Assembly (NCBI RefSeq): GCF_054482525.1
Contig: NZ_CM137006.1
Length of the DNA stretch: 64,000 nucleotides
Reading direction: 5' to 3' (one strand)
Every line of letters starts with the position of its first letter. Within the stretch, counting starts at the first letter, position 1. The translations under genes were made by a program, and so were the position numbers. Of the stretch, positions 36,143 to 44,166 are shown piece after piece. The notes beneath the pieces were generated by a model that was not told where the DNA came from, made no database searches, and saw nothing but the letters and a program-made list of their open reading frames with translations.

Positions 36143-36224
36143 CAACCAAACGACTCGGGGTGCCCTTCTGCGTGAAGGCTGAGAAATACCCGTATCACCT
36201 GATCTGGATAATGCCAGCGTAGGG
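36143..36224 (+). repeat. attL-like direct repeat: orphan copy of the 5' 82 nt of the thiM TPP-riboswitch leader
   Basis: 82/82 identity with 44023-44104, checked by eye. Confidence 0.85.
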
Positions 36225-36307
36225 GGCCAAAATAGTCTTGAAAATTATGTGGTTGTATCTCTTTTTGACCATAAATCATGCTGTTAAGGTACAAAAAGGG
36301 GTCGTTT

Positions 36308-37615
36308 ATGAGGTCAAGAACTCTCCCATACACATTTCAGCGAAACGGTAATTACTATCTACAAATCCGGCTTTCGGATGGTCGGATATACAAAAAATCA
36401 CTTTTTACTGACAGTTATCGCGAAGCATCGGCGTTGATGATTGGCCTTACTCCGCACATTCCTTTCGTTAAATCACTCGCTACTCCGTTGCCGCAATTTA
36501 ATAAGTTTGTTTCAAACTTGATCGCTTCGTCACGTAACGTAATGATTCCGTTGCCACTCCCTCAGCAATTGAACAATATTTCTAAAGAAGTTTTGCAGCT
36601 TCAACCACCAGCCAAACCGGAAAAGGTACTAACACTTGCTGATGCGTGGGCTATGTACAAGGAGGAAAGAGGTCGAAATTGGACAAAATCGATCTCAATA
36701 GCAAATGAGCGTTATATGGAGGTATTGCTTGTTGTCTTGGGAAAAGAAACAGACGTAACGGCAATCACCAAACAAGATATTAAGCGAGTAATGGAAACTG
36801 TCGAAAACTTACCAAAGCGTGTAGTGCAACCGTATAGGTCAATGACTATTCAGCAACTAATCGAATGTGATGATGTGCTGCCAGAGGATTTAGTTGGTGC
36901 TGAGGCTGTACATAAGCACCTTAAAATCTACAAATCGTTATTCAAAACATTTCTGACTGAAAACAAAGATATTCTATCTAAGTCTCCGACTGATGGAATA
37001 GTAGCGGCACCATCCAAAGCTAGGTTTGGTGCATACAGTGCAGCAGAAATGAAAAAATTTGTAGGATGGGCACTAAAGCAGCCTGATGGATGGCAGAAGT
37101 GGATCACTTTGTTGTTGGCGTACACAGGAGCCAGAAGAGGTGAGATTGCTAAACTGGAGAAGTCGCAGATCAAATTTGATGAAGATAGCCAGCGGCACTA
37201 TCTTCTGATCGCGGAAAGAAGGCTGGGTAAAACTGAGAATGCTACAAGACAGGTAGTGATTCATCCCAAACTGATTGAGTGGGGGTTTCTGGATTTTGTT
37301 AACCGCCAATGGAAAGAGAAAATCTTTTCGGAAGTCTCAGGTCGAAATATGTCAAAGATAGGTAAAGTTCTTTCAGATGTTCGTGATCAGCTTGATATTC
37401 CTTATCTTGATGATTATGGGCAGCGGCGCTTGGTGCATAGTTTCCGGCATACTATGATTTCTACTTGTTTAGCTGGTTGGGTGAGTAATTTGGCGCATCT
37501 GCAACAGGTGGTAGGTCATGAAAAGAGTGGAGTAGGGATTACCCAGCGTTATCTGCACACATTCCCACTTTCCACCGTTTGTTATGTGATCGATGGTCTT
37601 TGTTGGGAGACTTAG
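36308..37615 (+). CDS. Tyrosine recombinase/integrase
   Basis: Catalytic residues in TGARRGE, HSFRHT and ITQRYLH; start may be 36278 or 36308. Confidence 0.85.
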   Translation: MRSRTLPYTFQRNGNYYLQIRLSDGRIYKKSLFTDSYREASALMIGLTPHIPFVKSLATPLPQFNKFVSNLIASSRNVMIPLPLPQQLNNISKEVLQLQPPAKPEKVLTLADAWAMYKEERGRNWTKSISIANERYMEVLLVVLGKETDVTAITKQDIKRVMETVENLPKRVVQPYRSMTIQQLIECDDVLPEDLVGAEAVHKHLKIYKSLFKTFLTENKDILSKSPTDGIVAAPSKARFGAYSAAEMKKFVGWALKQPDGWQKWITLLLAYTGARRGEIAKLEKSQIKFDEDSQRHYLLIAERRLGKTENATRQVVIHPKLIEWGFLDFVNRQWKEKIFSEVSGRNMSKIGKVLSDVRDQLDIPYLDDYGQRRLVHSFRHTMISTCLAGWVSNLAHLQQVVGHEKSGVGITQRYLHTFPLSTVCYVIDGLCWET

Positions 37616-37743: not shown

Positions 37744-38469
37744 ATGGTTAAAAATTTAGGCAAAAAATACAAGTATGGCGATCAACCGATAAGAGCTATT
37801 ACCATACAGATAATTGCTAATCAGTTTGGTGGGGCTGCAACGGCTAAGCAGGTAGATGATTATCTTAGAAAGCTATTTCCATCTTATAAAGATAATACTT
37901 GGCTCAATTTAATTGCTAATACAGTTAATTGTAAGCGGAGCTACTGGAGTTTCAACAAAACTGCCCGACGAACTGATGATGTAACTCATCGGCATCATAA
38001 GTATGACCGATTGTTCAAGCGTGGAAATATTTTTGAAATCTATCAACCATCTGTGCACGGTATTTGGGAATTATACCAGGATTTAGAAGGGATGTGGCGT
38101 TATCGTCAAGTAAAATCGGTTTTCGAAGAAGCTGTTGAGACGGCTGCAAAATTATCTTCAGTGGAACGAAAGCAAATTTTAGCGACAGAAAGTAAAATCC
38201 CGGAACTAATCGAAGTAACAACACGAGTTTATAAACGAAGCCCATATGTAGTTGCTGAAGTTCTTTTGAGAGCAAATGGAAAATGTCAATATTGTAAGCG
38301 AGATGCTCCTTTTCTAAAGGAAGATGGTACTCCATTTCTAGAAGTTCATCATATTGAGTGGCTTTCAAAGGGGGGGGAGGACTCTGTGGAAAATGCTATT
38401 GCATTATGTCCTAATTGCCATAGACAAGCCCATTATGGCGATCTGACATTACTACCTGTTAATAAATAG
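37744..38469 (+). CDS. HNH nuclease with McrA-like C-terminal domain and unrecognised N-terminal domain (candidate type IV restriction enzyme)
   Basis: C-terminus CQYCKRDAPFLKEDGTPFLEVHHIEWLSKGGEDSVENAIALCPNCHRQAHYG closely parallels the McrA HNH motif as I recall it. Confidence 0.7.
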   Translation: MVKNLGKKYKYGDQPIRAITIQIIANQFGGAATAKQVDDYLRKLFPSYKDNTWLNLIANTVNCKRSYWSFNKTARRTDDVTHRHHKYDRLFKRGNIFEIYQPSVHGIWELYQDLEGMWRYRQVKSVFEEAVETAAKLSSVERKQILATESKIPELIEVTTRVYKRSPYVVAEVLLRANGKCQYCKRDAPFLKEDGTPFLEVHHIEWLSKGGEDSVENAIALCPNCHRQAHYGDLTLLPVNK

Positions 38470-39635: not shown

Positions 39636-40187
39636 TTACGCCACCTGCTCTTTCTTGATACGTTGCACCGTCTGCGTGCTGACACTGAAATCTTTTGCTA
39701 CGCTCCGAATTGAGCCACCATTCGCGAGAGCGGCAGCAATTCCCGCTCGATCAATTGCTTTTCCATTACCACGTTTTGCTATACGTCCAGCGGCCTTGGC
39801 TGCGGCGATCCCTTCACGTTGACGCTCAAGCATCATTTCACGTTCCATTTGTGCCACTGCTGCAAGAACTGTGAGCATCATATTCCCTGCGGGAGAGTTC
39901 TTTCCTGTCTTAAAGTCTTCTTTATGGAAATGCACAGACACGCCGCGCTTTGTTAATTGCTCTACAGTTGCCAGAAGGTCGGCTGTATTACGACAAAGGC
40001 GATCAATACTATGGACGTGTAACACGTCACCCTCCCGCACATAGTTCATCATTGCCTCAAACTGTGGGCGCTGAGTGTTCTTGCCTGACGCTTTATCTTC
40101 AAAGACTTTATCAAGAGTTACTCCTGCTAATTGACGGTCTGTGTTTTGTTGCACAGTCGATACCCTAATGTATCCAATATTAGCCAT
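39636..40187 (-). CDS. Serine recombinase (resolvase/invertase family)
   Basis: N-terminal IGYIRVSTVQQNTDRQ with catalytic Ser; C-terminal HTH. Confidence 0.85.
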   Translation of the reverse strand: MANIGYIRVSTVQQNTDRQLAGVTLDKVFEDKASGKNTQRPQFEAMMNYVREGDVLHVHSIDRLCRNTADLLATVEQLTKRGVSVHFHKEDFKTGKNSPAGNMMLTVLAAVAQMEREMMLERQREGIAAAKAAGRIAKRGNGKAIDRAGIAAALANGGSIRSVAKDFSVSTQTVQRIKKEQVA

Positions 40188-40674
40188 CTTCTTTTTTCTT
40201 CTGTATTGATTTGTGTGTAGTGATTATTGAACGTGTTGATTAGGTGTGTAAAGTACTTTTTTCACTACGAAATTCGAAGTTTTTTAGTGTGGTGATTTAG
40301 CCTGCCTTATCACTACACTTCTTGCATGAGAATCATGTAGTTACATTTTGGTAAAATTAGCAAGCTATTAAATTGTGTGTTTATTTTGAAAAAATAATTT
40401 TTGTTGCATTAAAGAAAACTTGTTCGACAAATAATAGGTTGATTTTTGATCAATAATTTCTGATAGTGCTCTGTAAGCCGCATTACACAAGGCGCAGCGA
40501 AAGTGATGTAAAAGTGAAGAAAGCTAACATTGCACTTTTAAACTACTTTTCATTGAATTTTTTAGTATGGAATTACACAGGAATAAGTTAGGGATATTCT
40601 ATGATTTACACAGGGAATATAGGGGGATTATGGTATTACACAGAGTGAGTGCTATGTGATGATTGGTAGTAACG

Positions 40675-40782
40675 GTAGGTCACTGTGAACTAGGGGGGTA
40701 GGTCACTGTGAACTAGGGGGGTAGGTCACTGTGAGCTAGGGGGTAGGTCACTGTGAACTAGGGGGTAGGTCACTGTGAACTA
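40675..40782. repeat. Iteron array: five tandem 22-23 bp repeats (gtaggtcactgtgaactaggggg) next to an AT-rich tract
   Basis: Contiguous direct repeats with no spacers, followed by ataagactataataagactattaataaaacta. Confidence 0.8.
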
Positions 40783-41883
40783 CAATAAGACTATAATAAG
40801 ACTATTAATAAAACTATATTAGATTATTAATTAGATCATAATAATAATATTCTTTATATCTATATATATATGATCTTTTGCCTTCCGGCGTTAGCTTCAC
40901 TCTCTGGCAAGCAGCCTTACTCCGCTACCTTTCGGGCTACGTTGGCTGGCCCGTTCCGCTCACACCGAAAGCAAAGCGTTACTTTCTTCGTGTAACTTCG
41001 TTGGCGGTAACGCCCACGAAGGAATACTATTGCGCTGTGCGCAGTAAGAGTAATCACCTAACCAATCATCTGATTGCTTACGTGTTAACTCTCTCTAACT
41101 CTTAATTACCCTCCTACATTTAATAACTCTCGTTATTCTCTGTAGTTGTGTAATTACTCGAAGAGAGAGCGGCTAAAGCTCAATTACACTCTGCTTTCCT
41201 CGTGTAATTTCACTAAGCCTCAATACAATTTCACTTCCTACATTCTGTAGTCGTGTAATTGTTTTCGGTGGAAAAGCCAGAGGCGACACCGAAAGAGAAT
41301 TCTGATCTTATTAATCTTATCTATCTTAGTTATCTTACTTACTTTATCTACTTTATTATTAATAATAGCTTTATAAGCTCTCTGTGTAGCTCTCTGACGC
41401 AAGAAACAGAGTTCAGGAAGGGAATCACCTTAGAAAAGTGTTCTTTGCGTCATAATGTGTTTTATGAAGGATTCAGAGGTGTTTCATAACAGAGATGTAT
41501 AGAGGATACTTTAGGTAATTAAAAATAAGGGGTCTAAATGCTTCTCTAACAGCATTAAGCAGGGTAGAGAATGGAAACCGCTTTGCCTACATATATAAAC
41601 TCACTACAGGGCTTTACAGAGCGTTTTATAAAGTGACTCTCTGTTTTATATCTACCATCACCTTTTCATATACCTAACAAATACAAAATAAGCCCCTTAA
41701 ATAAGCCTCTGGCGAGCTAAACAGCCATTACATAAGAGAATGTATTGCTTTTATCAAAACCTCGTTAGAACGCGTTTTAGAGCGTTTTAGCGGATAATGA
41801 AGAATAGCACTACACAGGAGAGCACGAATTGCTAAGAAAAAATGTAACTACATGAAAAAGATCAGATTTTTTGTGAAAAGGTA

Positions 41884-41912
41884 TTGACAAACGTCTCTTT
41901 CTGTGCAATAAT
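41884..41912 (+). promoter_or_regulatory. Candidate sigma70 promoter for the downstream operon
   Basis: TTGACA, 17-bp spacer, then TGcAATAAT extended -10. Confidence 0.45.
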
Positions 41913-42038
41913 AGGTATTAGAGGGACAGGAATAGATTCTTATCCTCTAAATAATTAAACCAATGCACCGCACTTTGAAGCCCAAGGCTTGTAAGGTGTG
42001 TTTTTTCTTTTAACCAAATAGAATAAGGAGGCTAATTA

Positions 42039-44022: not shown

Positions 44023-44166
44023 TATAGAGATTCAACCAAACGACTCGGGGTGCCCTTCTGCGTGAAGGCTGAGAAATACCCGTATCACCTGATCTGGATA
44101 ATGCCAGCGTAGGGAAGTCACGGACCACCAGGTCATTGCTTCTTCACGTTATGGCAGGAGCAAACT
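44023..44166 (+). promoter_or_regulatory. TPP riboswitch (thi-box) in the thiM leader
   Basis: Contains ctgagaaatacccgtatcacctgatctggataatgccagcgtagggaa immediately upstream of the thiM start codon. Confidence 0.9.

Follow-up and report, generated by a model that had tools for sequence, protein, structure and literature searches.

A DUF7669-type winged helix fused to a McrA-type HNH nuclease on an integrative island of Escherichia coli: a candidate type IV restriction enzyme

Introduction

Type IV restriction enzymes consist of interchangeable sensor and nuclease modules, and with each sensor that was newly characterised (SRA, EVE, YTH, NEco, SBD, DpnI-type winged helix), another way of reading modified DNA came to light, and often a reagent for epigenetics as well. 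This modular pattern of sensors and effectors has been reported repeatedly for type IV sensors (PMC6765204; PMC11037411; PMC12191111). In EcoKMcrA, encoded by the e14 prophage of E. coli K-12 (PDB 6GHC), residues H228, H229, H252, and H256 of the HNH domain are the catalytic or metal-binding residues, and the enzyme is only loosely methyl-dependent in vitro (PMC6182155). Helbrecht et al. described haloarchaeal enzymes with wH-HNH (224–283 aa) and PUA-wH-HNH architectures; their target is Gm6ATC, and they are toxic to Dam+ E. coli (PMC11037411).

Here, we analyse a nuclease gene in a 64,000-nucleotide stretch of contig NZ_CM137006.1 (RefSeq assembly GCF_054482525.1), hereafter the window. An initial annotation, made from the sequence alone, described the product as a McrA-like HNH nuclease with an unrecognised N-terminal domain and proposed it as a candidate type IV restriction enzyme. 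Our literature searches found no paper that mentions the nuclease or DUF7669, the domain family to which we assign its N-terminal half.

Results

The nuclease is cargo of a 7.9-kb island

The open reading frame at 37744..38469 is real, as first observed, and the RefSeq entry for the identical coding sequence, WP_000240373.1, is labelled 'HNH endonuclease'. It lies on a 7.9-kb island of low GC content (35–42%, compared to 50–54% in the flanks) that is bounded by perfect copies of an 82-bp repeat (Table 1). The island is inserted in the TPP riboswitch of thiM, with duplication of 82 bp of the aptamer (36143–36241 and 44033–44132), and both aptamer copies score above the Rfam gathering threshold (61 and 71 bits). 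The left copy immediately precedes the integrase gene, whose expression thiamine pyrophosphate could thus in principle influence.

As the initial annotation held, the nuclease is the first cargo gene after the integrase. There is no methyltransferase among the genes of the island. The other genes encode a secreted-looking 134-aa protein, an XRE-type HTH protein, a serine invertase, and a few small open reading frames. Beyond its HTH part, the XRE-type protein has an additional C-terminal domain without assigned function; the protein could act as a regulator of the island or of the nuclease. A search of the 128-bp spacer upstream of the nuclease gene gave no clear sigma-70 promoter.

A 1.85-kb stretch of the island (40188–42038) contains no annotated gene and is also blank in RefSeq. 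Five tandem iteron-like repeats of 22–23 bp (GGGGGTAGGTCACTGTGAACTA) are present within it at 40671–40787, and a perfect 17-bp inverted repeat (40333–40349 and 41839–41855) is found beside the Hin/Gin-type invertase gene. The stretch could be an origin of replication or a segment that undergoes inversion. In the island, the McrA-type HNH gene and a gene for a serine invertase are approximately 1.2 kb apart; K-12 has a similar pairing, with mcrA immediately next to pinE, an invertase gene, at the end of the e14 prophage (locus L012).

Table 1. Features of the island and of the nuclease gene, in window coordinates.
Feature	Position	Strand	Basis or remarks
Left 82-bp direct repeat (attL), inside a TPP riboswitch aptamer copy	36143..36224	.	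Exact repeat; Rfam TPP match 36146–36241
Tyrosine integrase of the island, immediately upstream of the nuclease	36278..37615	+	Open reading frame; PHROG integrase family, E 7e-27; RefSeq
Two-domain nuclease, complete open reading frame, 241 aa	37744..38469	+	ATG start; open reading frame listing and RefSeq annotation
N-terminal sensor candidate, DUF7669-type winged helix, residues ~8–125	37765..38118	+	Predicted
Helical linker/pre-HNH segment, residues 126–165	38119..38238	+	AlphaFold2 helices 126–135 and 139–148; BLASTP alignment to McrA
McrA-type HNH nuclease domain, residues 166–232	38239..38439	+	PDB, Pfam, and BLASTP matches
XRE-type HTH protein, 166 aa	38969–39469	+	HTH part matches PADLOC restriction-modification 'control protein', E 6.6e-17
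Hin/Gin-type serine invertase gene	39636–40187	minus	
Right 82-bp direct repeat (attR), inside the native thiM TPP riboswitch	44033..44114	.	Exact repeat; Rfam

The C-terminal half is a McrA-type HNH domain

Database searches bear out the assignment of the C-terminus to the McrA-type HNH nucleases. The Pfam HNH model matches residues 181–230 (E 1.2e-12), the PADLOC model 'mREase_IV' matches the protein (E 1.3e-23), and a phmmer search of PDB sequences recovered EcoKMcrA (6GHC; E 5.5e-23). By BLASTP, residues 136–231 align with residues 161–257 of K-12 McrA at 44% identity over some 96–97 positions (E 1e-27). The four zinc cysteines are arranged in two CxxC pairs (C181/C184 and C222/C225), and H202, H203, N217, H226, and H230 are the counterparts of McrA residues H228, H229, N243, H252, and H256. 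All of these residues, including both CxxC pairs, are invariant in 23 of 23 homologues from many genera of Enterobacterales. Judged by sequence, the active site of the HNH domain is intact. The motif string proposed in the initial annotation was correct overall, but three residues (KRD) rather than two separate the first CxxC from APF.

The NCBIfam model PT-DNA_restrict matches the query in the HNH part only. We also considered ZorE, IscB, and homing or packaging HNH proteins and rejected them: these matches are weak and confined to the HNH core, the partner genes are absent, and the N-terminal domain occurs in no phage record.

The N-terminal half is predicted to be a divergent DUF7669 winged helix

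The initial annotation had seen no resemblance to McrA in the 180 residues that precede the HNH motif. A dissimilar region does exist, but it spans residues ~1–135; from residue ~136 onward, the linker is already homologous to EcoKMcrA residues 161–190 by BLASTP. Residues 1–160 of McrA gave no BLASTP alignment with the query N-terminus and an hhalign probability of 2%, which rules out an ordinary McrA N-terminal domain; at the sequence level, residues 1–135 are without similarity to NEco, the 5mC/5hmC-reading domain of McrA.

Scans of the single N-terminal sequence against Pfam, NCBIfam, and PADLOC returned only a faint Forkhead match, and profile searches of the PDB gave nothing significant beyond a hint of histone H5. 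The Pfam model of DUF7669 (PF24706) matched neither the query (E<=10) nor 20 close relatives. A word-index search for the N-terminal domain found 127 homologues, all of them HNH fusions, and those with a named organism were all from Enterobacterales. We then built a profile from 20 homologues of the domain and searched it against 1.84 billion cluster representatives, which yielded 135 proteins. Among the full-length hits scanned, 64 of 88 match PF24706, and an hhalign comparison of the query family with distant DUF7669 members gave a probability of 99.95% (E 1.7e-38) over 127 columns.

AlphaFold2 modelling of residues 1–140, from an alignment of 56 sequences, predicted a winged helix (H1, strand, H2, H3, wing) with a pLDDT of 93.9 and a pTM of 0.83. 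The predicted elements are helix 16–27, strand 31–33, helices 34–44 and 52–58, a loop at 60–88, the wing hairpin at 90–99, and an extra beta-hairpin at 107–123; the loop, which joins H3 to the wing, is long and conserved. The most conserved residues (V61, N62, R65, D88, L90, Y100, H105, G106, and W108) are in the loop, wing, and hairpin. Foldseek searches of AFDB50 gave 48 matches at E<=0.001, the named ones including DUF7669, HNH endonuclease, NucS/DUF91, and McrB proteins. Those named 'DUF7669 domain-containing' reached E-values down to ~1e-7 with query TM-scores of 0.6–0.8.

Together, the profile and structure comparisons support a confident model in which the N-terminal domain is a divergent DUF7669 winged-helix member overlooked by the Pfam model. 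The domain called unrecognised is thus unrelated to that of McrA, as stated, but can be classified, and the winged helix is one of the folds that the initial annotation had named beforehand.

DUF7669 is fused to restriction-type effectors in bacteria and archaea

DUF7669 comprises more than 100 sequence clusters in bacteria and archaea with typical restriction architectures. HNH_2 is the partner in 37 of the 88 scanned relatives; the same Pfam scan found fusions to HNH, AAA_5/McrB, NucS_C, EVE, DUF3427, nSTAND3, and Hypoth_Ymh, and the Foldseek relatives add GIY-YIG, DUF262, DUF1016, RecB-like nucleases, and McrB (rank 14). Nuclease partners across bacteria and archaea thus include HNH, HNH_2, NucS/PD-(D/E)xK, GIY-YIG, and DUF262. 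In one relative with the arrangement DUF7669-AAA_5-McrB_lid, a gene for McrC follows directly 3'; DUF7669, at the N-terminus of a McrB GTPase that adjoins McrC, therefore occupies the target-recognition position of McrB. Such combinatorial fusions, as read from domain assignments, are a pattern typical of restriction sensor domains and lend independent support to a role of DUF7669 in target recognition in restriction. PADLOC models labelled type II match the HNH_2 domains of DUF7669 relatives.

Distant DUF7669-HNH genes stand alone amid housekeeping genes. We screened 17 taxonomically diverse DUF7669 loci from bacteria and archaea, a small sample, for methyltransferase motifs within up to 10 kb. 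Candidates were flagged in 3 of the 17 loci and the other 14 had none; an NCBIfam check of the flagged loci identified clear DNA methyltransferases near the DUF7669 match in two and a weak candidate some 3 kb away in the third. The complete 4.7-kb plasmid Drgb5 encodes a homologue of the query but no methyltransferase, and none is annotated within ~6 kb of the homologue on an IncX5 plasmid, for which the gene tables are incomplete.

In Alicyclobacillus montanus (L030:3552–6275), a 131-aa DUF7669 open reading frame overlaps, in another frame, one that contains a NucS-like PD-(D/E)xK motif. This arrangement looks like a frameshifted DUF7669-nuclease fusion. The locus adjoins genes for Vsr and for a C5 DNA methyltransferase.

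Comparison with characterised restriction enzymes

The query and EcoKMcrA share a homologous HNH domain with the same catalytic histidines, CxxC zinc sites, and pre-HNH helices, and both are single polypeptides encoded on a mobile element without a methyltransferase. In contrast, the NEco reader of EcoKMcrA is missing from the query. ScoMcrA, SprMcrA, and TagI likewise have a related HNH domain (5ZMM, E 1.6e-8; 6GHS, E 0.55) and a modular sensor-plus-HNH design, but their SRA/SBD sensor is undetectable in the query: Pfam and NCBIfam searches found no SRA or sulfur-binding domain outside the HNH part. McrBC systems, which have variable N-terminal sensors, resemble the query family in that DUF7669 can form the N-terminal domain of a McrB-type AAA_5 GTPase adjoining McrC; the query instead has its DUF7669 domain fused to an HNH nuclease and dispenses with the GTPase/McrC machinery.

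The wH-HNH enzymes of Helbrecht et al. are similar to the query in size, in the order of an N-terminal winged-helix reader and a C-terminal HNH domain, and in the lack of a methyltransferase. Some relatives of the query, with the arrangement DUF3427-DUF7669-HNH_2, mirror their PUA-wH-HNH layout. For comparison, we took the sequence of HhiV4I from the HHPV4 genome. Its winged helix is the Pfam family DpnI_C (PF17726; E 3.5e-16) and its nuclease is of the HNH_2 type. DpnI_C was matched in Pfam scans by neither the query nor any of 88 relatives, the profile of the DUF7669 family gave an hhalign probability of 1.6% with HhiV4I, and the query model matched DpnI (4KYW) in Foldseek with an E-value of 3. 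A winged helix of the DpnI_C/HhiV4I type, a reader of Dam methylation, was rejected on these grounds, with no detectable homology. The two groups also differ in that the query has DUF7669, with a conserved loop of 25–30 residues and an extra hairpin, where the Helbrecht enzymes have DpnI_C, that the nuclease is McrA-type in the query and HNH_2 in the Helbrecht enzymes, and that the latter are toxic in Dam+ E. coli whereas the query family resides in E. coli and other Enterobacterales. At the level of sequence families, the query is architecturally parallel to the Helbrecht enzymes but built from other families.

Distribution and selection

The exact gene was found in 68–69 of 5,426 complete E. 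coli genomes, in 68 of them at >=99% identity, and a paralogue of ~76% identity in a further 31; together, they account for 99 genomes (~1.8%). An IS1 element is present within the matched region in one of the 69 matching genomes. Homologues were also found on 14 plasmids, among them Drgb5 of Pectobacterium, which otherwise encodes Rep, a Fic protein, and two small hypothetical proteins, and an IncX5 KPC-2 plasmid. No DUF7669-type domain was detected among 50,697 phage records.

The paralogue belongs to a sister island family in other E. coli genomes (L002–L006), with an integrase 82% identical and an HNH protein 76% identical to those of the window. The sister islands occupy the rcnR/thiM site, as the island of the window does, in three of five places and other sites in two. 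Their cargo differs, including an AIPR (abortive-infection family) protein and IS1 insertions. In four of the five places, the integrase gene is separated from the HNH gene by an 86-aa open reading frame; in three, one of 161 aa overlaps the HNH stop codon.

Comparisons with three homologues gave dN/dS values of 0.07–0.13 where estimable, dS being saturated in several pairs, and by these sequence estimates both domains are under purifying selection. The dN of the N-terminal domain is three to five times that of the HNH domain, and the query and its paralogue are 66% identical in the sensor domain and 92% identical in the HNH domain. In one homologue pair, among the comparisons of the query with L002 and L011, dS was uneven (N-terminal domain, 1.54; linker, 0.07; HNH domain, 0.55), which hints at recombination that swaps sensor and nuclease halves within the family.

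Discussion

The explanation that we favour, and consider somewhat probable, is that the nuclease is a stand-alone type IV, i.e., modification-dependent, restriction endonuclease carried as cargo of a small integrative island. In its favour are the McrA-type HNH domain with its intact active site, the winged-helix model and its homology to DUF7669, the effectors to which that family is fused, the lack of a methyltransferase in the island, on the plasmids, and in most of the distant loci screened, and the purifying selection on both domains. By analogy with EcoKMcrA, the C-terminal HNH domains would dimerise and form a catalytic DNA channel. Each DUF7669 winged helix would bind a mark on invading phage or plasmid DNA that is absent from Dam/Dcm-methylated E. 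coli DNA, and the HNH domains would then nick both strands near the bound site. Dimerisation, modification dependence, and the identity of the mark are elements of this model that we infer. E. coli is a Dam+ and Dcm+ species; because the gene resides there, Gm6ATC or C5mCWGG is unlikely to be the target, and the mark would be a different one. A bolder proposal, which we consider unlikely, is that DUF7669 domains form a class of modified-DNA readers that has so far gone unrecognised, paired in bacteria and archaea with six or more types of effector, and that the E. coli enzyme reads a mark beyond those of McrA, McrBC, Mrr, and GmrSD. Such a mark might be a hypermodified phage base, for instance 7-deazaguanine, Mom-type adenine, or a pyrimidine carrying glucose or another decoration.

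Counting against a modification-dependent enzyme is that a winged helix can equally read unmodified sequence. The nuclease could serve defence independently of modification, its winged helix recognising unmodified sequence or DNA structure while the host is spared by an unlinked methyltransferase, tight regulation, or activation only during infection, in a manner resembling restriction-modification or abortive infection. McrB-like systems such as LlaJI are also restriction-modification-like, and the dependence of EcoKMcrA itself on methylation is not strict in vitro. The type II labels of the PADLOC models that match HNH_2 relatives likewise count against a type IV assignment. Furthermore, DUF7669 is also fused to the non-nuclease or abortive-infection-type domains nSTAND3 and Hypoth_Ymh, two of the 17 distant loci have a confirmed DNA methyltransferase nearby besides the weak third candidate, and the HTH protein that resembles restriction-modification control proteins is encoded 0.5 kb downstream of the nuclease. 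Methylation inhibits, and does not trigger, a structurally McrA-like HNH enzyme flanked by methylases in E. coli NILS69 (bioRxiv 10.1101/2024.12.20.629700), so that type IV behaviour should not be taken for granted. Yet the island, the 4.7-kb plasmid, and the IncX5 plasmid move between diverse hosts free of a methyltransferase, a nuclease blocked by methylation would kill a new host on arrival, and the downstream partner genes vary between island variants. On balance, we regard a defence role independent of modification as unlikely.

The linkage of integrase and nuclease is a further point against the type IV interpretation. The pair is kept at the left end of two diverged island versions whose other cargo differs, a pattern that would fit a nuclease working for the island, whether by nicking in its replication, transfer, or excision or as an addiction or homing factor, instead of anti-phage cargo. 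The iteron-like repeats and serine recombinase of the island would fit such a role. We nevertheless think it improbable, given that integrase-free homologues exist on plasmids and chromosomes, that the N-terminal family is fused to a McrC-adjoining McrB and to many nuclease types in unrelated contexts, and that the domain was seen in no phage record. The failure to find a promoter-like site in the upstream spacer, which also weighs against an active restriction enzyme, and the single IS1-bearing copy would be expected of an inactive relic without present function. The low dN/dS values, the catalytic residues invariant across many genera, and the near-identity of the gene across 68 complete genomes make a relic very improbable.

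The type IV interpretation of the initial annotation is therefore supported as a candidate, although 'type IV' and 'different modified-base specificity' are terms that we, too, infer. The enzyme is a type IV-style sensor-HNH fusion and not a new category, and its placement in DUF7669 is a refinement. If true, this interpretation would bring the kinds of methyl- or modification-directed restriction in the E. coli pan-genome to five. With the gene or its paralogue in ~1.8% of complete genomes, and homologues on resistance plasmids, it is relevant to phage therapy and plasmid spread. The E. coli copy, fused to the best-understood HNH partner, offers the easiest entry to what DUF7669 reads; if DUF7669 does prove to be a class of modified-DNA reader, the E. 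coli enzyme would be a tractable model and a possible detection reagent for the mark.
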